From a virus (taxonomy: Duplodnaviria; Heunggongvirae; Uroviricota; Caudoviricetes): DNA of 64,000 bases. The translations under genes were made by a program, and so were the position numbers. The stretch is from IMG/VR virus record IMGVR_UViG_3300013105_000004, positions 13,973 through 77,972 of that record; one strand, 5' to 3'. How positions within the stretch are numbered: the first letter of the stretch is position 1; every line of letters begins with the position of its first letter. The notes under the pieces were generated by a model. The model made no database searches. It was not told the origin of the DNA and saw only the letters and a program-made list of their open reading frames with translations. Shown here piece after piece: positions 13,919-51,467 of this stretch.

Positions 13919-14000
13919 AAAAGTGCTTTTGAGCAACTTTCCACCGTTTCGGCCTGTTTCTGAGGGCGGATTGGCGGGTTTTCTCTTTAAGAAGAGACTC

Positions 14001-17658: not shown

Positions 17659-19025
17659 ACAATACGTACACCATCGTCAAGAGCCTGCAAACGGCTCAGG
17701 GCAACATTGCCAAGCAAGCGATCCTCGACGCCAACAAGGGCAACGAGAACTTCAAGGCGTACATGAAGGCAGTGTATGACGTAGGTATCAACTACTACCA
17801 ATCGAAGCTGCCGAAGCTGACGCCCGGATTCGGTGTTGCAGAGTTCGGTGAGGCAGATATGCGCTTCATGGAGCATCTGTCGAATCGCGTGTACACCGGG
17901 ACGGAAGCTGTCAACCGCCTGAAAGGCCATGCGTCAGCGCTGAACCCGGAAGGGCAAGAGCTGCTGGGCCTGATGCTGAAGCGCTCCATCGGGGCATCCG
18001 TAGGTGATACGATGGTACTGAAGACGTGGCCCGACCTGTACTTCCTGCCTCCGTACCAGCGTTGCTCGCTGCTGGACGCGAAGGCTCGTGAACGGTTCGG
18101 CAAGCTGAAGCGCTTCTACGTCCAGACCAAGGCAGACGGTTCGTTCGCGTACGTCGTGAAGCGTCTCGACGGCTCCGTGGATGTCATTACGCGGCAGGGG
18201 TCGAAGTATCCGCAGTGGTTCGCTGAAAAGCTCACCTACGGCATGAAGCCGGGAACCGTGTTGGTCGGTGAGTTGCTGGTCAACGAACACTGCTACGTGG
18301 ACGGCAAGGAGGCAGAAATCGGGCTGGAACGTAAAGAAGCCAACGGCCTGCTGAACTCAGCCCTGAAAGACGGCGAAAAATTCGATCTGACGAAGTCTGT
18401 TCGCATGGAAGCGTGGGATTTACTGACCGAGGAAGAATTCGTCGCTGGCAAATCGAACCGTGACTACGACACTCGCCTCCGTTCGTTGATCTACGAAGTA
18501 ACCAAACTGTCGCGTGGACAGATTACGATGATCCAGACGGACGAAGTTGGTTCGTTGGAGGAAGCGTTCGCTATCTACCAGAAGCGTTTGCAGGAAGGGT
18601 TGGAAGGCTGTATCATCAAAGACCCTGCCTCGCTGTGGAAGGACGGAACGAGCAAAGACATGGTGAAGCTGAAGATCAAGTTCCAAGTGGAGATGCGCTG
18701 TACTGGCGTCTACGAGGGTGAAGGTAAGGCTGCTGGCATGTTGGGCGGTATTTACATCCAATCGGAAGACGGTGCTATCGAGTGTGCGTGTGGCTCCGGC
18801 TTCACGGATGCGGATCGTAAGCATTACTGGGCGTTCAAGGAGAACATCATCGACTTCGTTGTTACCGTGGAAGCGAACGATATCACGCAGTCGCGGGACG
18901 ACCGGAAGAAGCCTTCGCTATCGCTTCCGATCTTCATCGAAGTACGGCTGGACAAGATGCACGCTCACGCTGATACGGCGGACCGCATCTACGCACAGCT
19001 CGAAGCAGCGAAGCAAGGAGGTTGA
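17655..19025 (+). CDS. ATP-dependent DNA ligase
   Basis: nucleotidyltransferase motifs I KADG, III LVGELLV, IV EGCIIK, V MVKLKIK, VI LPIFIEVRLDK. Confidence 0.8.
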   Translation: MNNTYTIVKSLQTAQGNIAKQAILDANKGNENFKAYMKAVYDVGINYYQSKLPKLTPGFGVAEFGEADMRFMEHLSNRVYTGTEAVNRLKGHASALNPEGQELLGLMLKRSIGASVGDTMVLKTWPDLYFLPPYQRCSLLDAKARERFGKLKRFYVQTKADGSFAYVVKRLDGSVDVITRQGSKYPQWFAEKLTYGMKPGTVLVGELLVNEHCYVDGKEAEIGLERKEANGLLNSALKDGEKFDLTKSVRMEAWDLLTEEEFVAGKSNRDYDTRLRSLIYEVTKLSRGQITMIQTDEVGSLEEAFAIYQKRLQEGLEGCIIKDPASLWKDGTSKDMVKLKIKFQVEMRCTGVYEGEGKAAGMLGGIYIQSEDGAIECACGSGFTDADRKHYWAFKENIIDFVVTVEANDITQSRDDRKKPSLSLPIFIEVRLDKMHAHADTADRIYAQLEAAKQGG

Positions 19026-19492: not shown

Positions 19493-20650
19493 ATGGCTGA
19501 ACGTAAACTAGCGACCATTCGCCGTATCAAACAAATCCTGCCCATCGCTGGTGCAGACAAGATCGAAACCGCTCTGGTCGATGGCTGGCAAGTCGTCGTG
19601 AAGAAGGGCGAATTCACCGAAGGCCAACTGGCCGTCTACTTCGAAATCGACTCGTGGGTGCCGAACACCATCGCACCGTTCCTGACGAAAGAAGGCTACG
19701 ATCCGAAGGAATTCAACGGTGTGAAGGGCGAGCGCCTGAAGACGATCAAGCTGCGCAAAACGCTGTCGCAAGGTCTGCTGCTGCCTCTAAGCGTGGTCCC
19801 GCATTATGAGCAAATCCCGGCTGAAAGCCGTGGCATGGACGTAACTGAAGCGCTGGGCGTCCAGAAATGGGAAGCGCCGGAAGAGAAGGCTACCAACAAC
19901 GGCCCGACCGCTTCGAAGACTCGCTCGTTCCCGTACTTCATCCGCAAGACGGATCAGGAGCGTGCTCAGAACTACGGTCACATGATCGAAGCCAACCTCG
20001 ACACGAAGTTCGAAGCAACCGTGAAGAAGGATGGCTCCAGTCTGACGGTATTCCGCGTCGTTCCGGGTAGCGAATACTACGAAGACGCGAAAGCTCTGGT
20101 GCAAGGCAAGCAATCGCTGTTCACTCGCATCAAGAACTTCGTGCTGCGCAAGAAGGCTGAACCAGTGTACGGCCTGTGCTCGCGTAACGTCCTGCTGCCG
20201 TTGGAAGGTAACAGCAATTTCCATATCGCTGCCAAGCCTCTCATCGAGAAGCTGAAGAACGACGTGTCGATTGCCCTCGAAGGCTCCATCGCCCTGCAAG
20301 GCGAGCTGGTTGCTCCGGACATCCAAGGCAACTACGAGAAGGTGAAGGACGTGGAATTCCACCTGTTCGACATCTTCCAGATCGACCGGCAAGAGTACTT
20401 CCTCCCGCTGGAGCGCATTGTGTTCGCTGACATCTACGGTATCAACCACGCTACCATCGTGGACCGTGGAACGCTGCGCAACATCCTGCAACTGAAGGAA
20501 GGCGAAGATGTCGTGCAAAAGCTCTTGACGTACGCGTCGGGCGAAGGCGATAATCCGGGTGTGATGCGTGAAGGCGTTGTGTTCAAAGCGGCCGACAAGG
20601 ACTTCAGCTTCAAGGTCATTTCGAACGAATACCTTCTGCACAAGGGTTAA
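19493..20650 (+). CDS. ATP-dependent RNA ligase-like (Rnl2/PF09414-type) nucleotidyltransferase
   Basis: N-terminus KLATIRRI..PI.GADKIE...VDGWQVVVKKGEF; motifs KKDGSS, QGELV, EGVVFK, FKVIS. Confidence 0.55.
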   Translation: MAERKLATIRRIKQILPIAGADKIETALVDGWQVVVKKGEFTEGQLAVYFEIDSWVPNTIAPFLTKEGYDPKEFNGVKGERLKTIKLRKTLSQGLLLPLSVVPHYEQIPAESRGMDVTEALGVQKWEAPEEKATNNGPTASKTRSFPYFIRKTDQERAQNYGHMIEANLDTKFEATVKKDGSSLTVFRVVPGSEYYEDAKALVQGKQSLFTRIKNFVLRKKAEPVYGLCSRNVLLPLEGNSNFHIAAKPLIEKLKNDVSIALEGSIALQGELVAPDIQGNYEKVKDVEFHLFDIFQIDRQEYFLPLERIVFADIYGINHATIVDRGTLRNILQLKEGEDVVQKLLTYASGEGDNPGVMREGVVFKAADKDFSFKVISNEYLLHKG

Positions 20651-34709: not shown

Positions 34710-34785
34710 GGGTCGTTAGCTCAGTGGATAGAGCACGGGACTTCTACTCCTGCTGTCGTAGGTTTGAATCCTACACGACCTACCA
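34710..34785 (+). tRNA. tRNA-Arg (anticodon UCU)
   Basis: cloverleaf: acceptor GGGTCGT/ACGACCT, D-arm GCTC-AGTGGATA-GAGC, anticodon stem CGGGA/TCCTG loop CTTCTAC, T-arm GTAGG-TTTGAAT-CCTAC, encoded CCA. Confidence 0.85.
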
Positions 34786-43782: not shown

Positions 43783-43851
43783 CACTACTTGACAGGCTGG
43801 GTGGAATGGGATTACCATTCTATCTGGCCTTTTATTTTATCGGAGATAGAA

Positions 43852-44037
43852 ATGAACCAATGTGACGGATGCAGGGCTGGTCACGAAGTAGTGACCAAAT
43901 ACGGGTCGAAGGCCCATGTGAACGAGCGTGGCTACATGTATATGTCGTGCCAATCGCATCGCTACGTACAAGAAGAGACGCCAGAGCAACGTGCCAAGCG
44001 TGAGCTGGGCTTCCCGATTGAAGGAGTGGAGCCATGA
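43852..44037 (+). CDS. small Cys-rich protein (61 aa)
   Basis: RBS GGAGATAGAAATG; CDGC...C motif. Confidence 0.4.
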   Translation: MNQCDGCRAGHEVVTKYGSKAHVNERGYMYMSCQSHRYVQEETPEQRAKRELGFPIEGVEP

Positions 44038-44228
44038 GCGCACATCAATTGGTTCACGATTTTGACGAAGCCGCTCAGTGGTGGGGCTGGGAACGCGACC
44101 ATGGCACGGGCACCTTTGTAACGCGAGCTATGGAGGGTTACAACGCGTCGAAGGAAGCACTCACAAGCTATGTGTTGGACATGGAAGCGACGCTGGCAAT
44201 GATCGAAATGCATAAGGACAAGGTATGA
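44034..44228 (+). CDS. hypothetical protein (64 aa)
   Basis: ATGA-coupled. Confidence 0.4.
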   Translation: MSAHQLVHDFDEAAQWWGWERDHGTGTFVTRAMEGYNASKEALTSYVLDMEATLAMIEMHKDKV

Positions 44229-44512
44229 ACATCGGACTCGACTACGACGACACGTTCACTCGTGACCCTATCGGCTGGGCAGAGTTCGTCAAGTTCTTCA
44301 CGGAGCGCGGCCACAAGGTCTACATTGTGACGTGGCGGGACGAGGAAGAAGCCAAGGAAGTGCACATGGCTATGCAGTACTGGAAAGTCGAGTGTGAAGG
44401 CATATACGCTACGGACAGGAAGAATAAGGAACGCTTCATGTACGGCAAGGGTATTCGCATCGACGTAATGATTGATGACATGCCCCACGCGTGGGTACGA
44501 GATATGACGTGA
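44225..44512 (+). CDS. small HAD-like protein (DxD motif LDYDDT)
   Basis: motif only; 95 aa. Confidence 0.4.
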   Translation: MNIGLDYDDTFTRDPIGWAEFVKFFTERGHKVYIVTWRDEEEAKEVHMAMQYWKVECEGIYATDRKNKERFMYGKGIRIDVMIDDMPHAWVRDMT

Positions 44513-44614
44513 ACGCTACATACCAGTCAGACGGAGAGCTAGTCGCTATCACCATTGAAGGATTGTCGGACGAGGGTTTGACATTCCATATTTTCTACAT
44601 CAAGGAGCAAAAAC

Positions 44615-45100
44615 ATGAAGCTAGTAATCGCGGGCTCTCGGAGCATCCGGGACTACAACGTCACCCGACAGGCGATAATTGAATCCGGCCTCTGGGCCAA
44701 GTATGGAAAGAAGATTCACGTCATCTCTGGCGAAGCTGAAGGCCCGGACAAACACGGGGAGCTGTTCGCAGAGAAGGCCGGTCTGAAGCTGACGAAGAAG
44801 CCCGCTGACTGGGGCAACGTCAAAGCACGTGGGGCAGTGGTACGTCACAACAGCCGTGGGCCGTACAACGCTCTGGCGGGGCACTGGCGTAACGAAGAGA
44901 TGGCACAGATGGCCGATGCAGCTCTCATTGTGTGGGACGGACGTAGCACTGGCTCGCTCGATATGCTGCACCGTATGATCGCTCTGGACAAGCCTGCGTA
45001 CCTGTTCCCGCTGCGTATCGATGCGGATGCGCTCGACCGTCTTCAAGATAAGTGCGAAATTATTTTCCCGAATAGCTTGACGGCACGTAAGAGCCTGTAG
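44615..45100 (+). CDS. SLOG-fold (DprA/LOG-like Rossmann) domain protein
   Basis: LVIAGSRSI...HVISGEAEGPD...IVWDGRSTGS pattern typical of SLOG/DUF2493-type proteins. Confidence 0.55.
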   Translation: MKLVIAGSRSIRDYNVTRQAIIESGLWAKYGKKIHVISGEAEGPDKHGELFAEKAGLKLTKKPADWGNVKARGAVVRHNSRGPYNALAGHWRNEEMAQMADAALIVWDGRSTGSLDMLHRMIALDKPAYLFPLRIDADALDRLQDKCEIIFPNSLTARKSL

Positions 45101-45143
45101 ATAATACTACCTATCGCAACCAACCAACAATTAGGAGGAAGGA

Positions 45144-45551
45144 ATGGCTACTACGGTTTATCGCATTGAAAAGGACGGGATCGGCATGTACGGAAGCGGC
45201 GGATGCCGGGAAGAGTACGGCTACGATTCGTTCCGTCATCCGAACCCAGACGACGATGCGAAACTCCGGAAGGCCACGGATGAACGGAAGGGGCAGGACG
45301 GTAAGCTGTACTTCGATTACTCCCCTTTCCACTTCGGATTCATCAGTATCGAACAGCTCCGGGCGTGGGTGTACGCTGACGACTGGCTGCGCAGTCTGCA
45401 CGACTCGGGACACGTACTGGCTATCTGCCGCTCCGACGACGTTCTGGTCGGCTACTCGCAAGCGATTTTCAAGCGCCCGGAGAAGTATTTGAAGGTAAGT
45501 ATCAAGGACTACTTCAACTTGAAGGATGAAGAGGACGAAGAAAGTGCTTGA
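45144..45551 (+). CDS. hypothetical protein (135 aa)
   Basis: leader CGCAACCAACCAACAATTAGGAGGAAGGAATG. Confidence 0.55.
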   Translation: MATTVYRIEKDGIGMYGSGGCREEYGYDSFRHPNPDDDAKLRKATDERKGQDGKLYFDYSPFHFGFISIEQLRAWVYADDWLRSLHDSGHVLAICRSDDVLVGYSQAIFKRPEKYLKVSIKDYFNLKDEEDEESA

Positions 45552-45708
45552 CCCAGACGAAGTGTATGAGCTACGATGTGAAGCTCGTAGCAAGCAACGT
45601 ATTGAACGCTGCCAATGCGATGTAGACTGGGGCACATGCCTCGGACCAACCAACTGCCCGTACTCGGGCTATGAACAAGGAGAAGAAAATGAGCCGCAAT
45701 CAACGTGA
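45526..45708 (+). CDS. hypothetical Cys-containing small protein
   Basis: ORF overlapping neighbours; start uncertain. Confidence 0.3.
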   Translation: MKRTKKVLDPDEVYELRCEARSKQRIERCQCDVDWGTCLGPTNCPYSGYEQGEENEPQST

Positions 45709-45892
45709 AGGTAAATTCATTCCGGGCTGGTGCCTGAACCCGAACATGGTGCTCCGTAACGGTGTGTACCGTGCTGGCGTCCGTGCTGGTAAGTACGCCA
45801 ACGTGAAGGGCGTACGCAACGCTTTCGATGGCTACGCTACCATCCCCGGCCTGAGCTTCATCCGCTCGATCCGTATGGAGGCTTACGTATGA
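45689..45892 (+). CDS. hypothetical protein (67 aa)
   Basis: RBS ACAAGGAGAAGAAAATG. Confidence 0.5.
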   Translation: MSRNQREGKFIPGWCLNPNMVLRNGVYRAGVRAGKYANVKGVRNAFDGYATIPGLSFIRSIRMEAYV

Positions 45893-46704
45893 GCCTGCGC
45901 ATCGTGCACCGTATCGATACGGGCTTCACCAAGACGACGTTTCCGGGCGGCGAATCCTGCATCCGCGTAGCGGACAATCTGGACGCTGACGAAATCATCG
46001 TCGGTCTGGACTTCGAATCGAACGTCGATCTGTTCGATCTGGCCCTGCTCGTGGATGCTCTGCGTCGGCAATATCCCGGCACTCCGCTGCGATTGTTTAT
46101 GCCGTACGTACCGTACGCTCGTCAAGACCGCGTGTGCAACGAGGGCGAGAGCCTGTCGATCAAAGTCGTGGCAGACTTCATCAATTCGCTGAAGTTCGAA
46201 CGCGTCTGCATCTTCGACCCGCACTCGGATGTCACGACTGCCCTGCTGGATAACGTGGACGTGTACTCTCAAGAGTTTGCTGCAAAACCTCTTGCCCGTG
46301 CCACGGACCCTAGTAACACTATCATCGTTGCTCCGGACGCCGGGGCTTCGAAGAAGGCAAGCAAGTTTGCCAAGGAAGGAGGGTTCGCTGGCCTAATCCA
46401 AGCGGAAAAGGTTCGTGATCTGCTGACCGGCAAGATTCTGGAAACGCGTGTCCCGGACATCCTCGCCGGGAACATGGACCTGCTGATCGTGGACGACATC
46501 TGCGACGGTGGCCGTACGTTCACGGAACTGGCGAAAGTGCTGCGCTCGAAGACGACCGGCAAGATTCTGTTGTACGTAACGCACGGTATCTTCAGTGCTG
46601 GCCCGGAAGTGTTTGACGGACTGATCGATAAGGTGTACACTGCTAATCCTGTCGGTGCTACTGGCAGGTACGCAGTGTCATCTTGTAAAGTAGTCAAACT
46701 GTAA
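45889..46704 (+). CDS. ribose-phosphate pyrophosphokinase (Prs)-like enzyme; candidate ADP-ribose pyrophosphate synthetase (Adps) of an NAD+ reconstitution pathway
   Basis: PRPP-binding loop LIVDDICDGGRT; MPYVPYARQDR matches Prs motif; shorter (271 aa) than canonical Prs. Confidence 0.7.
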   Translation: MSLRIVHRIDTGFTKTTFPGGESCIRVADNLDADEIIVGLDFESNVDLFDLALLVDALRRQYPGTPLRLFMPYVPYARQDRVCNEGESLSIKVVADFINSLKFERVCIFDPHSDVTTALLDNVDVYSQEFAAKPLARATDPSNTIIVAPDAGASKKASKFAKEGGFAGLIQAEKVRDLLTGKILETRVPDILAGNMDLLIVDDICDGGRTFTELAKVLRSKTTGKILLYVTHGIFSAGPEVFDGLIDKVYTANPVGATGRYAVSSCKVVKL

Positions 46705-46737
46705 TCGTAAGCACCGCTACCAATTAAGGAGAAACAA

Positions 46738-46950
46738 ATGGCAAAGAAACTGAAAGAAGGTGATAAAATTGTCTTCCACAACAGCAAGTCGAACCACAAC
46801 GACCCCGACGTAATCGATCTGACGTTCGGGAAGATTTACGAAGTGCACGAAGCCGTCAACGGCGAGGTCTACGTCTTGGATGACGTTGGCGATATCAATT
46901 ACGCTTGCGACCCGACGGGCTCCGGTAAGTGGACTAAGATCGTAGACTAA
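46738..46950 (+). CDS. hypothetical protein (70 aa)
   Basis: RBS TTAAGGAGAAACAAATG. Confidence 0.5.
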   Translation: MAKKLKEGDKIVFHNSKSNHNDPDVIDLTFGKIYEVHEAVNGEVYVLDDVGDINYACDPTGSGKWTKIVD

Positions 46951-46972
46951 CCAATCAACCAAGGAGAAAACA

Positions 46973-48598
46973 ATGAAAATCAAACCGCACCTGATCCTCG
47001 ACTCGTACAAGCTGGGCCACATCGACCAGTATCCGGAAGGCACGCAATACGTGTACTCCAACCTGACGGCTCGTTCGGCTGGTCACGCCAAGATGGGCAA
47101 GCTGTACGACAACAAGGTGGTGTTCGTCGGCCTGCAAGGCTTCGTGAAAGAGTTCCTGATCGAAGCATGGAACGAACACTTCTTCAAGCGCCCGAAGGAC
47201 GAAGTGATCGCTGAATACAAACGTCGCTGCGACAACTTCCTCGGCCCGGATGCCGTTCGTACGGACCACATCGCTGCTCTGCATGACCTCGGCTACCTGC
47301 CGATCATCATCAAGGCTCTGCCGGAAGGTTCGCGTGTGGACATAAAGGTTCCGTTCCTGACGATCCGTAACACCCTGCCGCAATTCTTCTGGCTGACGAA
47401 CTATCTGGAAACGGTGTTGTCGGACGAGATGTGGCAACAAATCACGGTAGCGACCATTACGTACGAATACCGTCGCATCCTGAACAAATTCGTGGACCTC
47501 ACCGGCTCCGACATCGGCTTTGCCGATTGGCAGATTCACGATTTCTCGATGCGTGGTATGGTCGGCTGGCACGGTGCAGCCAAGGGCGGCGCTGCTCACC
47601 TGTTCATCTCGCGTGGTACGGATACGCTTCCTGCTATCGATTATCTGGAAGAGTACTACAACGCCGACGTGACGAAGGAACTGGTGGCGGGTTCGGTCCC
47701 GGCTACCGAACACAGCGTCATGTGCATGGGTGGCAAGGATGATGAAATCGGTACGTTCCGCCGTCTCATCAAGGACGTGTACCCTTCGGGCATCGTCTCC
47801 ATCGTGTCGGATACGTGGGACTTCTGGCAAGTGATTACGGAGTACGCCAACACGCTGAAGGATGATATCCTGAACCGTACCCCGAACGCTCTGGGTCAAG
47901 CGAAAGTGGTGTTCCGTCCAGACTCCGGTGATCCCGTCAAGATCGTCGCTGGTCTGCGTGCAATCGAGTTGAACGAAGTGAGCGAAGACAACTTCTTCCG
48001 GTATGATGTCGTTATCAAAGACGGCAAGTACTACGAGTTCGAAGCGGCCTTCTGCGGCGATCTGTGCGAGTGCATGCTGGATATCGAACTCGGCCGTGAA
48101 GTGCCCGAGCACGAAGTCAAGGGTGCTGTCGAATGCCTCTGGGACATCTTCGGCGGCGACGTGACGGCGAAGGGCTACAAGACGTTGAATCAGCGCGTGG
48201 GCCTGATCTACGGCGATTCGATCACGCTGAAGCGTGCAGAAGAAATCCTGCAACGCCTGATGGACAAAGGCTTCAGCGCTGGTAACATCGTGTTCGGTGT
48301 TGGTAGCTTTACGTACCAGTACATCACTCGTGATACGTTCGGCATGGCTGTCAAGGCTACGTGGGGCGTCGTGAATGGCAAGGCTCTGAACATTCAGAAA
48401 GACCCGAAGACCGGCGACGGTATGAAGAAGTCGGCAACGGGCCTGCTGCGTGTCGAGAAGGAAGGCGACAAGTTTGTGCTGTATGACAAGCAATCGATTC
48501 ACGACGAAATGCTGGGCGAGCTGGAAACCCTCTTCGTTGACGGCCAGTTGCTGCGCGATGAAACGTTCGCTACCATCGTAGAACGTCTCAAGCAGTAA
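46973..48598 (+). CDS. nicotinamide phosphoribosyltransferase (NAMPT/NadV)-like enzyme; candidate Namat
   Basis: N-terminus LILDSYKLGH..; 541 aa NAPRTase-family length; leader AACCAATCAACCAAGGAGAAAACAATG. Confidence 0.75.
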   Translation: MKIKPHLILDSYKLGHIDQYPEGTQYVYSNLTARSAGHAKMGKLYDNKVVFVGLQGFVKEFLIEAWNEHFFKRPKDEVIAEYKRRCDNFLGPDAVRTDHIAALHDLGYLPIIIKALPEGSRVDIKVPFLTIRNTLPQFFWLTNYLETVLSDEMWQQITVATITYEYRRILNKFVDLTGSDIGFADWQIHDFSMRGMVGWHGAAKGGAAHLFISRGTDTLPAIDYLEEYYNADVTKELVAGSVPATEHSVMCMGGKDDEIGTFRRLIKDVYPSGIVSIVSDTWDFWQVITEYANTLKDDILNRTPNALGQAKVVFRPDSGDPVKIVAGLRAIELNEVSEDNFFRYDVVIKDGKYYEFEAAFCGDLCECMLDIELGREVPEHEVKGAVECLWDIFGGDVTAKGYKTLNQRVGLIYGDSITLKRAEEILQRLMDKGFSAGNIVFGVGSFTYQYITRDTFGMAVKATWGVVNGKALNIQKDPKTGDGMKKSATGLLRVEKEGDKFVLYDKQSIHDEMLGELETLFVDGQLLRDETFATIVERLKQ

Positions 48599-48610
48599 GA
48601 AAGAAGCGTT

Positions 48611-48868
48611 ATGGCACTAGACATCTTCGGAAATACTCTGTATACTGGTGATGTTGTCGTGTTCGCAGAAGAGGGTTGGGGCGGAGAGCCCTCCCTCGCT
48701 GTCTTCGAAGTGGAAGAAGTAGTCGATACCAACGTCGTCAGCGCTAGAGCAATGAACGACTACGCAATCGGGGAACTCTTCTACCTTCAGGACACGGACA
48801 AGCGTTGCTCGCTGATCCGCAATGTGTTCAAGACAGCAGCACTAAACCGTAGTACCACTATCAACTAA
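48611..48868 (+). CDS. hypothetical protein (85 aa)
   Basis: ORF. Confidence 0.45.
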   Translation: MALDIFGNTLYTGDVVVFAEEGWGGEPSLAVFEVEEVVDTNVVSARAMNDYAIGELFYLQDTDKRCSLIRNVFKTAALNRSTTIN

Positions 48869-48885
48869 CTAAGGAGAAATACACT

Positions 48886-50265
48886 ATGAAACAATCGAAA
48901 AACTACATCGGCTTCGTCAACGATCACTCGGGCTCGATGGCTGGTAAGCGTGCTGAAGCAGCAATCCTCGACTACAACGCCAACATCACGGCGATCAAGG
49001 ATGCAGCGAACGCTGAACTGCTCGACACCGTTGTTTCCGTCGTCGGCCTCGGTATCGGTAACTCCCCGCTCGGCGGTTACGCCAACGGCACGGAGCGTCA
49101 GGTGGTCATCTCGAATCCGCACGTCCTGAAGCCTGTCGCTGACTGGCCGACTCCGGGCAACACGCCGCTGTACGACGGCGTGGGCGATATGATCGAACTG
49201 CTCGAATCGCTGCCGGATGCGAAGGACTCGCACGTTTCGTTCCTCGTGATGACCACGACGGATGGCGAAGAGAATGGCTCCCGTCGTTACAGCGCTGGCT
49301 CGCTGCGTCAGAAGATCGAACAACTGCAACGTACCGGCCGCTGGACCTTCGTGTTCCGTATTCCGAAGGGCTACCGCAGCTACGTCAGCAACCTCGGCGT
49401 CCCGGCTGGTAACATCGTGGAATGGGAAACCACTGCTGAAGGTATGGCGAAAGCTACGGCTGCTACCACGCAAGCAATGCACAGCTTCTACACGGCTCGT
49501 TCGGCAGGCAAGTCCAGCTCGACCGTCTTCTACGCTGATGCAACCGCTGTCGATACGTCGAAGCTGGTGGACATCTCGAAGCGTACGTCGCTGTACGTGG
49601 TGGAAGCTCACGAGAACGGCAAGCAGATTCGTGACTTCATCCTGTCCCGTCGCACTCGCTACCTGAAAGGTGCAGCGTTCTACCAGCTCACCAAGACGGA
49701 AGCTCGTGTTGGCCCGAACAAGATGCTGGCTGTCCGTGACCGTAACACTGGCGTCGTGTACGCTGGTAAGGAAGCCCGTACGATGCTGGGCCTGTCGTCG
49801 GTGGACAACATCCGCCTGCACCCCGGCAACCACGGCAACTACGACCTGTTCATCCAGTCGGAATCGGTGAACCGGAAGCTGGTGGCTGGTACTGGCGTGC
49901 TGTACTGGGAAGAAATCGGCGTGCCGTTCACCCAAGAAGAAATCGACCGCTTCACGGGTAACGCTCCGGCTGCTCCTGCAAAACCGGCTGTCGTGCAACT
50001 GCCTGCTGTTCCGGTGACGAACAAGCCGACGCCTTCGCCGCTGAAGCCTACGCCGAAGGTAACGTTGCCAGCTCCGGGCACGCCTCCGAAGGCTCTGCCT
50101 GCTGTGAATGGCCGTGTGCGTTACCACGAGCCGACGCTGGACGCTCTGTTCTACTCGACGCGTGATATCGCTCGTGAAGTGGCTCACTCGATGCCGGGTA
50201 AGAAGCAGTACGATGCTGGCCCTACCGCTCCGTACGGTCGTCGTTTCTTCGTCGCAGCAGCGTAA
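48886..50265 (+). CDS. von Willebrand factor A (vWA) domain protein with Pro-rich C-terminal region
   Basis: MIDAS motif DHSGSM; ...TTDGEENG. Confidence 0.7.
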   Translation: MKQSKNYIGFVNDHSGSMAGKRAEAAILDYNANITAIKDAANAELLDTVVSVVGLGIGNSPLGGYANGTERQVVISNPHVLKPVADWPTPGNTPLYDGVGDMIELLESLPDAKDSHVSFLVMTTTDGEENGSRRYSAGSLRQKIEQLQRTGRWTFVFRIPKGYRSYVSNLGVPAGNIVEWETTAEGMAKATAATTQAMHSFYTARSAGKSSSTVFYADATAVDTSKLVDISKRTSLYVVEAHENGKQIRDFILSRRTRYLKGAAFYQLTKTEARVGPNKMLAVRDRNTGVVYAGKEARTMLGLSSVDNIRLHPGNHGNYDLFIQSESVNRKLVAGTGVLYWEEIGVPFTQEEIDRFTGNAPAAPAKPAVVQLPAVPVTNKPTPSPLKPTPKVTLPAPGTPPKALPAVNGRVRYHEPTLDALFYSTRDIAREVAHSMPGKKQYDAGPTAPYGRRFFVAAA

Positions 50266-50272
50266 CTAGCGC

Positions 50273-50301
50273 TTGACAGGGTAGATAGGAAGTACTACAA
50301 T
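50273..50301 (+). promoter_or_regulatory. promoter TTGACA-17-TACAAT
   Basis: read from sequence. Confidence 0.6.
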
Positions 50302-50371
50302 GCTTCCTGTCTACTGAAACTTGCAATCCGTCCTAGCATATGTTATACTACTACCTTTAAGGAGGTAGTAG

Positions 50372-50941
50372 ATGAACGAGATTTTTGAGTACGATGAAAC
50401 AAGCCCTTCGGGGATGAGATGGAAGGTCGATAGATATACAGGCCACTCCAAGACACGAAAGCACATATCCGCTGGGGACGTAGCCGGACACTGGAGCAAG
50501 GCAGGTTACTGGACCGTTAACGTCAACAACAAAGCCTACTATGTACATCGTGTTATCATGGAACTGCATGGTTACGACATAGAAGGCCTTGAGGTTGACC
50601 ATCGTGACAAGAACAGATCGAATAACAAGCTAAGTAATCTTCGTGTCGTACCTAGAGTGCTTAACTCCCGGAACATAACGATGAGGGATGATAATTCGAG
50701 TGGGGTGACTGGTGTTGTATGGCAAGAATCAAAGTACAGCACAGTAGCTACTGCTTGCTGGCAAGAAGCTGGACGACAGAGCCGGAAGAGTTTTTCAGTC
50801 GGCAAGTACGGGCTGCTAGGGGCATTTGCCAAGGCGGTCCAGTTTAGAAAAGAAACCATCCAGAGGCTAAACACCGAAGGATACGACTACACGGAAGGAC
50901 ACGGAAATGGCGCTACGGATCGAGAGCGGGGACTTGTTTAA
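50372..50941 (+). CDS. HNH homing endonuclease with AP2 domain (paralog of 21094..21693)
   Basis: HRVIMELHGY..VDHRDKNRSNNKLSNLR + SGVTGVVWQ..ATACWQ. Confidence 0.7.
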   Translation: MNEIFEYDETSPSGMRWKVDRYTGHSKTRKHISAGDVAGHWSKAGYWTVNVNNKAYYVHRVIMELHGYDIEGLEVDHRDKNRSNNKLSNLRVVPRVLNSRNITMRDDNSSGVTGVVWQESKYSTVATACWQEAGRQSRKSFSVGKYGLLGAFAKAVQFRKETIQRLNTEGYDYTEGHGNGATDRERGLV

Positions 50942-51365
50942 CGAAGCAATGGGCAAGAGGGTCATCATCGCGCACGGATGTAATAAGCAGGGGAAAATGG
51001 CTTCGGGATTTGCCGGAGTCGTCAAAAAGCTCTACCCATTCTGTTACTCTGCCTACATGCAGGAACATAATGACTTCGGGCTGGTAGGCGGGGATGTAGT
51101 TTTTGCTACGTCTAAAGATAGCAAGGTAGTGGTAGCTAACGCTATTACGCAAGAATTTTATGGACGGGACGGTAAAAAGTATGTAGACTACGACTGGGTT
51201 GTGGATTCTATGACCAAAGTTGCAGACTACTCCAAGAAGCACAATATCCCGATCTACCTCCCGATGATCGGTGGCGGTCTGGGTGGTGGTGACGTGAAGC
51301 GCCTCACGGCTATCTTCCAAGCTGTCTTCTTTGATGTGGACGCTACGCTGTACGTGCAAGAATGA
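50907..51365 (+). CDS. macrodomain protein, TARG1/OARD1-like (ADP-ribose binding/glycohydrolase)
   Basis: IIAHGCNKQGKMASGFAGVVKKLYP resembles TARG1 [22 protein letters not shown]; C-terminal LPMIGGGLGGG. Confidence 0.65.
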   Translation: MALRIESGDLFNEAMGKRVIIAHGCNKQGKMASGFAGVVKKLYPFCYSAYMQEHNDFGLVGGDVVFATSKDSKVVVANAITQEFYGRDGKKYVDYDWVVDSMTKVADYSKKHNIPIYLPMIGGGLGGGDVKRLTAIFQAVFFDVDATLYVQE

Positions 51366-51467
51366 AGCGCTTCTTCGGTTGGTTGAAGAAGCTGCTCCTT
51401 GAGGATAAGCCGCATCCGAAAGGTGATGAAATGTTCCGTGGCAAAACTATTGAATAGGAGAAATAAA

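Follow-up and report, generated by a model that had tools for sequence, protein, structure and literature searches.

A NARP1-type gene pair in an uncultured phage

In a 64-kb stretch of the genome of an uncultured lytic phage (IMG/VR record IMGVR_UViG_3300013105_000004, positions 13,973 to 77,972; hereafter the window), two genes were identified which very probably represent the core of NARP1, a module for the reconstitution of NAD+. The genome measures ~91 kb, of which ~27 kb lies outside the window. The first gene encodes a protein of the ribose-phosphate pyrophosphokinase (Prs) family, the candidate Adps, and the second a protein of the nicotinamide phosphoribosyltransferase (NAMPT) family, the candidate Namat.

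The defence systems Thoeris type I, DSR1/2, SIR2-HerA and SEFIR cleave NAD+ into ADP-ribose (ADPR) and nicotinamide (Osterman et al., bioRxiv 10.1101/2024.02.11.579819). In NARP1, Adps pyrophosphorylates ADP-ribose and makes no phosphoribosyl pyrophosphate (PRPP), while Namat joins the resulting ADPR-pyrophosphate (ADPR-PP) to nicotinamide, which yields NAD+. The pathway is effective against Thoeris type I, DSR1, DSR2, SIR2-HerA, SEFIR and Kongming, and it was found in 859 phage genomes, or 4.3% of those surveyed (Osterman et al.).

The Prs-like open reading frame (ORF) spans positions 45889-46704 of the window on the + strand and encodes 271 aa, with the PRPP loop LLIVDDICDGGRT at residues 198-210, as read from the ORF list. 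The NAMPT-like ORF (46973-48598, +, 541 aa) is the second gene 3' of it. Both lie on the same strand with a spacing of 268 nt, in which a single ORF of 70 aa (p70; 46738-46950, +) is found. When genes were called independently on a public assembly (90,744 bp) of this phage, the identical three genes resulted, and all three display a Shine-Dalgarno sequence 6-10 nt 5' of the ATG. The original prediction, which was made from the sequence alone, had announced a Prs-like gene with a PRPP loop and a NAMPT-family gene two genes downstream, and this arrangement was recovered exactly. Its proposal that the two genes form an Adps/Namat pair is likewise upheld, at the level of homology, by the clade placements, clamp motif, catalytic residues, gene linkage and missing Nmnat gene of the window.

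The Prs-like protein belongs to the Adps clade

The candidate Adps displays the Pfam domains PF13793 (Pribosyltran_N) and PF14572 (Pribosyl_synth), and it was assigned to phrog_619 of the PHROG database with an E-value of 4.8e-82. According to blastp, it is 47% identical to the homologue of Pseudomonas phage pf16, 43% to that of Bas61, 40% to Bas63 Adps, 38% to a Prs paralogue of Acinetobacter, 32% to SPbetaL1 Adps and 29% to E. coli Prs. The values for SPbetaL1 Adps and E. coli Prs are close, and the clade placement thus rests on the phylogenetic tree and on the intermediate sequences of Bas63, Bas61 and pf16.

The tree was calculated from 167 sequences, namely 83 viral homologues from IMG/VR, reference proteins and 78 bacterial and archaeal sequences. 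The latter were drawn from one genome per species, by taking the best 80 among the first 600 pattern matches. The smallest neighbour-joining clade that unites the Adps of SPbetaL1 with that of Bas63 comprises 94 sequences, among them the window protein, SPbetaL1, Bas63, Bas61, pf16, the 83 viral homologues and 7 bacterial proteins. All 73 housekeeping Prs, that of E. coli among them, are located outside, and the two groups were split in 200 of 200 bootstraps. This is in line with the published finding that Adps form a well-supported clade apart from Prs, in which 97% have a Namat within ten genes (Osterman et al.).

Columns of the alignment were considered discriminating when one residue was present in at least 75% of the Adps clade and another one in at least 75% of the Prs sequences. 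Twelve such columns were found, and the window protein carries the residue of the Adps clade in all of them, e.g. Pro75 for Gly, Gly86 for Arg and Val115 for Gln. The protein also keeps the RQDR, His and Asp-Asp motifs. K174 aligns with K162 of SPbetaL1 Adps, the mutation of which abolishes activity (Osterman et al.), and R176 aligns with the arginine of the flexible loop. From these features the candidate Adps would be expected to act as an ADP-ribose pyrophosphokinase. The length of 271 aa, which the original prediction had contrasted with that of canonical Prs and taken as a sign of Adps, also fits, as members of the Adps clade have a median of 284 aa and housekeeping Prs one of 318 aa.

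A first alternative is canonical salvage, in which an ordinary PRPP synthetase and an NMN-forming Nampt (NadV; NMN, nicotinamide mononucleotide) would act in a NARP2-like manner and NadR or PncC-NadD/E of the host would complete NAD+. At first sight the database names speak for it. The candidate Adps passes the broad subfamily model TIGR01251 with 130.6 bits (cut-off 113), and the candidate Namat scores 557 bits (cut-off 405) with the equivalog model NF006629, named 'nicotinate phosphoribosyltransferase'. However, the validated Adps and Namat of SPbetaL1 obtain the same names and scores. NCBIfam holds no model specific for Adps or Namat, and since validated NARP1 proteins are named alike, the names do not discriminate. 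TIGR01251 is also the only Prs model that the candidate Adps passes: among the NCBIfam equivalog models for Prs, the best one (NF002095) gave 120 bits for a cut-off of 296, and the others 57-77 bits for cut-offs of 438-536. Validated SPbetaL1 Adps equally stays below all of these cut-offs. A canonical Prs is further disfavoured by the tree position and by the discriminating columns, at none of which a Prs-type residue occurs. The phylogeny that had been proposed along with the original prediction came out in favour of Adps.

The NAMPT-like protein carries the clamp-helix motif of Namat

The candidate Namat combines PF04095 (NAPRTase) with PF18127 (NAMPT_N) and was assigned to phrog_448 (E-value of 4.7e-197). 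Two entries for SPbetaL1 Namat, 9w5x and 9w5w, matched best among all sequences of the PDB, with 510.7 bits, a score 2.5-fold higher than that of human NAMPT (204 bits). Identities to the homologues in 50,697 phage records are bimodal. One group (38-55%) consists of phages which also possess Adps-like genes, the other one (24-32%) of T4-like and KVP40-like phages. Nampt homologues without Adps have been described as a separate clade which is paired with Nmnat in the NARP2 pathway, as in Vibrio phage KVP40 (Osterman et al.). In a tree of 87 sequences, a KVP40-like Nampt (phage R11Z) and that of CfP1 were split from the other 85 in 200 of 200 bootstraps, and the candidate Namat was placed between the Namat of SPbetaL1 and of Bas63. 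The choice between Namat and NadV/Nampt, which the original prediction had left to phylogeny or HMM comparison, therefore falls on the Namat side as far as the KVP40-type enzymes are concerned.

The structure of SPbetaL1 Namat has revealed a 'selectivity clamp' for adenine, which is composed of a helix motif and a variable loop (Lan et al., NAR 2026, PMC12774641). The consensus of the clamp helix is GS-X-phi-X-phi-X-phi-TRD, where X is aromatic, and the loop adds one stacking residue (Lan et al.). The clamp-helix (SCH) motif of the candidate Namat, G444-SFTYQYITRD-454, fits this consensus, and it has F446 and Y450 where SPbetaL1 stacks the adenine with F392 and Y396. A clamp-type helix motif was found in all 79 viral homologues linked to an Adps-like gene. 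Two Nampt of the NARP2 type show GGGLLQQLDRD and GGGLLQEVTRD at the same place; this GGGLLQ-type helix of KVP40-type Nampt is missing from the candidate Namat, which again argues against canonical salvage.

The residues contacting nicotinamide and ribose-phosphate are conserved (D10, Y12, F191, R194, D217, R315 and D317), as are the catalytic His247 and the GD of the diphosphate site. All Namat residues reported as essential (R306, D215, F189 and the catalytic His) are kept, here as R315, D217, F191 and H247, respectively.

The clamp loop (SCL) exceeds that of SPbetaL1 by 5 aa and reads S-A-G-H. It is known to be variable, and its fourth residue can take over the stacking (Lan et al.). His38, the fourth residue in the candidate Namat, is conserved among the relatives of the window protein, and His38 of the partner subunit might thus complete the adenine clamp. 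The candidate Namat also contains an insert of ~50 aa at residues 328-381, a position at which the Bas61 and pf16 homologues also bear an insert.

A further Nampt homologue was noticed in Aeromonas phage Assk (L092:1492-3018), with 36% identity. Its helix motif, GSWGFLKNASRD, is neither of the Namat type nor of the KVP40 type, and the protein grouped with the two KVP40-type (NARP2) Nampt in only 4 of 200 bootstraps.

Gene linkage and search for an Nmnat

When viral loci were collected through their Adps-like gene, a Namat-like gene was located downstream on the same strand in 79 out of 83; in the remaining four, the contig ends within ~2.3 kb downstream. The pairing of the two genes is far beyond chance. 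Both genes are complete in 72 viral loci, where they are separated by at most 200 nt in 49 cases and by more than 200 nt in 23. The spacer of 268 nt with its small ORF is therefore not unusual.

Homologues of p70 were detected only in two related loci (L007/L008), with an additional weak one in L010. As p70 is absent from the close relatives L033 and L006, it is probably not a core part of the module. The small proteins p70, p85 (encoded 3' of the candidate Namat) and p73 (a member of the same gene block) gave no family match even with E-values up to 10, no RyR domain was detected, and they did not resemble the small ORFs that occupy the corresponding positions in Pseudomonas phage PaP1. No relatives of the three proteins were detectable beyond this phage lineage.

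All 65 window ORFs with a length of 95 aa or more were scanned with Pfam, which returned 23 families in all, and none of the CTP_transf_like/NMNAT, NadR or NUDIX families was among them. As the window offers no Nmnat gene, the canonical route from Prs and Nampt would need host enzymes.

Relation to bacterial prs-nadV operons

A further point on the side of canonical salvage is the closest protein to the candidate Namat in the phage collection (tblastn), an Acinetobacter NadV with 55% identity. It belongs to a prs-nadV operon, a type long read as PRPP-dependent salvage. It is found in the record 'Acinetobacter phage MD-2021a', the contig 15 of which holds chromosomal genes in the order prsA_2 - nadV - Nudix gene and looks like bacterial chromosome. 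The Acinetobacter gene annotated as 'NMN adenylyltransferase/ADPR pyrophosphatase' corresponds to the regulator NrtR according to Pfam.

The pairs of Acinetobacter (L003, L093, L104) and of Paenibacillus/Cohnella (L095, L096) are located inside both the Adps and the Namat clades, and their Namat-like proteins carry the clamp motif. In all five bacterial loci with a Namat-like neighbour, the Prs-like protein falls inside the Adps clade. Since the Acinetobacter operon itself lies within both NARP1 clades and shows the clamp motif, the match lends no support to canonical salvage. Operons of the prs-nadV-nrtR type were described in 2008 in Acinetobacter and Shewanella, where the dedicated Prs paralogue was called puzzling; ADP-ribose releases NrtR from its operator and thereby derepresses them (Rodionov et al. 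2008, PMC2330246). A bacterial NARP1 has been reported from Paenibacillus foliorum (PMC12774641), with which the trees presented here agree. Taken with the data on both proteins, canonical salvage is considered highly improbable for the window locus.

In contrast to the bacterial operons, which are chromosomal and linked to the ADP-ribose-responsive NrtR, no NrtR was found in the window. A weak match to the Acinetobacter NrtR probe (18426-18533) falls within the gene of the DNA ligase and was rejected as noise. On another viral contig of 138 kb, an NrtR-like gene (L017:5053-5745, -) is divergent from an Adps-Namat pair, which hints at an ADP-ribose-responsive regulation of NARP1 in a phage.

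A candidate Adpp downstream of the pair

A gene not mentioned in the original prediction encodes a Macro protein of 152 aa (50907-51365, +). It is located on the same strand as the pair, 2.3 kb after the Namat gene and four genes on, in the order p85, p459, HNH and Macro. The protein alone gave no significant match in Pfam. A profile built from it and nine homologues matched BT1257 (5.6e-19) and yeast Poa1p (3.8e-10), and also TARG1/OARD1.

Fifteen per cent of NARP1 operons have been reported to include a Poa1p-like Macro protein, Adpp, a variant which was named NARP1-AP; Adpp turns ADPR-1''-phosphate, the product of aRES, into ADP-ribose and thereby restores the function of NARP1 (Osterman et al., bioRxiv 10.64898/2026.01.28.702374). 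Yeast Poa1p is an ADP-ribose 1''-phosphate phosphatase which handles a by-product of tRNA splicing (same preprint).

Members of the Macro family were found at most 6 kb from the Adps gene and on the same strand in 23 of the 83 viral loci. In L014 and L048 the Macro gene is enclosed by those of Adps and Namat, in Pseudomonas phage PaP1 it comes two genes after Namat, and in L007/L008 three. At this place, the latter loci lack the HNH-AP2 homing endonuclease gene (50372-50941, +; PF13392, PF00847), which overlaps the start of the Macro gene by 35 nt in the window and has four paralogues in L006. The HNH-AP2 gene is probably a mobile insertion that splits the block. Given its family profile and neighbourhood, the Macro protein may well be an Adpp, i.e. 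an ADPR-1''-phosphate phosphatase. The presence of its homologues inside other NARP1 operons indicates that the locus is probably an extended NARP1-AP variant. It holds the parts of NARP1-AP without the compact layout of the latter, and is probably best described as a spread-out NARP1-AP.

Other genes of the block and its surroundings

The gene of p85 (85 aa; 48611-48868, +) directly follows that of the candidate Namat, and it is kept at this place in L006, L007/8, L010 and L033. Next to it, p459 (48886-50265, +) encodes 459 aa with an N-terminal von Willebrand factor A (vWA) domain, a middle part rich in beta structure, a disordered linker rich in Pro at ~360-394 and a small C-terminal domain. 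The metal ion-dependent adhesion site (MIDAS) of the vWA domain reads D13-x-S15-x-S17. The AlphaFold2 (AF2) model has a pLDDT of 81 and Foldseek matched it to the vWA domains of integrins and of the anthrax receptor with E-values of ~1e-7. None of the 624 homologues of p459 has a Pfam domain. The gene is found between Namat and Macro in 8 of 8 related loci. The fold search revealed the vWA domain only, and no link of p459 to NAD+ was found.

On the 5' side, a protein of 161 aa with a SLOG/DprA fold is encoded at 44615-45100 (+). Its AF2 model (pLDDT of 92) matched best to ShosA in Foldseek (E-value of 1e-6, TM of 0.66), which is the DprA-like part of Shosta, a defence system. The gene is kept 5' of NARP1 in this phage lineage only. 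A role as general partner of NARP1 was considered and rejected, as only 7 of 83 loci have the gene in the neighbourhood. A DprA-like gene is present close to the NARP1 block of PaP1 as well, and its product shows no detectable sequence similarity to the SLOG protein of the window. Neither the SLOG protein nor the small proteins p70, p85 and p73 could be connected with NAD+.

It was considered whether the whole block, SLOG - p73 - Adps - (p70) - Namat - p85 - p459 - Macro, could be a larger counter-defence island around NAD+ and ADP-ribose. In such an island, p85, the vWA protein and the SLOG protein might feed more ADP-ribose-derived molecules into NARP1, similarly to RyDEP/Adpp, or alternatively neutralise other defence proteins. 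The evidence for the island consists of synteny kept within one phage lineage, and this extension is rated as unlikely.

From ~44000 to 51400, every gene lies on the + strand and the gaps are short. A strong terminator-like hairpin is present at 43794-43830, and a promoter-like site near the consensus at 50273-50301, 5' of the HNH and Macro genes. Both were found by pattern matching only, and the operon picture drawn from these consensus matches is tentative.

Across the window as a whole, a region of replication and nucleotide metabolism gives way to genes for lysis and to large structural genes. Primase-helicase, family A DNA polymerase, ATP-dependent DNA ligase and endonuclease VII represent replication, while a ribonucleotide reductase-like protein and ThyX represent nucleotide metabolism. 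An ArdA antirestriction protein and a GH108 endolysin are also encoded. According to the gene call on the public assembly, a glutaredoxin gene is located 5' of the NARP1 genes.

These surroundings bear on a second alternative, according to which the chemistry is that of NARP1 and the purpose a different one, i.e. recycling of ADP-ribose from ADP-ribosylation or RNA repair, or maintenance of high NAD+ for replication. The module indeed lies among genes for ribonucleotide reductase, glutaredoxin, ThyX, RtcB and RNA ligase, bacteria possess homologous prs-nadV-nrtR operons outside prophages, and in yeast the Poa1p-type Macro enzyme is the phosphatase of a tRNA-splicing by-product. On the other hand, NARP1 has acted in counter-defence in every phage tested so far, with its intermediates appearing only under active defence. 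The Pfam scan of the window revealed no 2'-phosphotransferase of the Tpt1/KptA type and no ADP-ribosyltransferase family, and the DNA ligase is ATP-dependent by both Pfam and PHROG. This second alternative is therefore regarded as very unlikely, and the counter-defence reading of the NARP1 module is retained.

An RtcB (1107-2315, +), an RNA ligase (19493-20650, +) and an HD-domain protein (58-636, +) were noted as a possible tRNA-repair set, and a single tRNA, tRNA-Arg(tct), is encoded at 34710-34785 of the window.

The same protein was found on contigs of ~90.7-90.9 kb, and relatives on many contigs of 88-93 kb. A megablast search with the region gave no nucleotide match in the 50,697 phage records. 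The phage lineage, which is known only from metagenomes, has less than 60% protein identity to any of these records.

Comparison with characterised systems

The locus closely resembles the NARP1 of coliphage Bas63 and of Bacillus phage SPbetaL1 in its organisation. The Pfam architectures, gene order, strand, clades, catalytic residues and clamp-helix motif are the same. The Pfam families are those reported for genes 79 and 80 of Bas63, the phage that led to the discovery of NARP1, and the module of the window, like that of Bas63, is located 3' of ribonucleotide reductase and glutaredoxin genes. The sequences are nevertheless distant: Adps and Namat of the window are 40% and 41% identical to the Bas63 proteins, and 32% and 48% to those of SPbetaL1, respectively. 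The 70-aa ORF between the genes, the Gly-His clamp loop and the insert of ~50 aa at 328-381 also distinguish the window from these two systems.

With the NARP1-AP of Vibrio phage Gary (Adps - Adpp - Namat), the locus has in common a Poa1p-like Macro protein encoded nearby on the same strand. It differs in the position of the Macro gene, the fourth one after Namat, with p85 and p459 (and HNH) in between. The Gary system was compared by its description, and the sequence comparison made use of the homologues of L014, L048 and PaP1.

The NARP2 of KVP40 also involves a phage NAMPT-family enzyme and the shared goal of rebuilding NAD+. In contrast, the candidate Namat belongs to another clade and is 29-31% identical to the KVP40-like and T4-like Nampt, the helix there reads GGGLLQ..RD, and the window provides an Adps partner and no Nmnat.

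The candidate Adps has its fold in common with E. coli Prs, a housekeeping PRPP synthetase of class I, as well as the residues that bind ATP and ribose (RQDR, the His, the DD pair and the Lys/Arg of the flexible loop). At 29% identity, the window protein is shorter by ~18 residues at the N-terminus and by ~25 at the C-terminus. It shows 12 diagnostic substitutions, and its loop reads DDICDGGRT, compared to DDMIDTGGT in Prs.

Proposed function and significance

In the host cell, the module would act on the products of NAD+-cleaving defences. The candidate Adps would place a pyrophosphate from ATP on the 1'' position of ADP-ribose and so produce ADPR-PP. The candidate Namat would then exchange the pyrophosphate of ADPR-PP for nicotinamide and form NAD+ directly. 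The adenine of ADPR-PP would be held by the aromatic clamp of F446 and Y450, and possibly also by H38 of the partner subunit. As a third step, the Poa1p-like Macro protein probably converts ADPR-1''-phosphate, the product of aRES, into ADP-ribose.

Several observations weigh against assigning the locus to NARP1 or to NARP1-AP. The near-equal identities of the candidate Adps to the purified SPbetaL1 enzyme (32%) and to E. coli Prs (29%) belong here, and the trees were of the neighbour-joining type, computed with code of our own from sampled Prs sequences. Gly37 occupies the third position of the clamp loop, where Arg, Lys or Tyr is typical of published Namat. Namat enzymes retain the capacity to form NMN from PRPP in vitro (Osterman et al.; PMC12774641), a property that would also suit canonical salvage. 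The absence of Nmnat holds for the 64-kb window of a genome with ~27 kb more. Macro domains have other activities too, and a Macro gene four genes from Namat falls outside the two-gene rule of the NARP1-AP preprint. The enzymatic activities and the counter-defence role are inferred from homology.

With NARP1 known from 859 phage genomes and the structure-function rules published, the locus would be one more example of a described counter-defence. The loosely arranged, probable NARP1-AP is its sole unusual trait, and no new question is opened by the locus. It extends NARP1, probably in the form of NARP1-AP, to an undescribed lineage of phages of ~91 kb. Three published characteristics, namely the Adps clade, the clamp motif of Namat and the gene linkage, agree here on a distant sequence. 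They can thus be used to correct the labels 'ribose-phosphate pyrophosphokinase' and 'nicotinate phosphoribosyltransferase', which such genes routinely and wrongly receive. Finally, the position of the Macro phosphatase several genes away suggests that counts based on a two-gene neighbourhood underestimate the occurrence of NARP1-AP.

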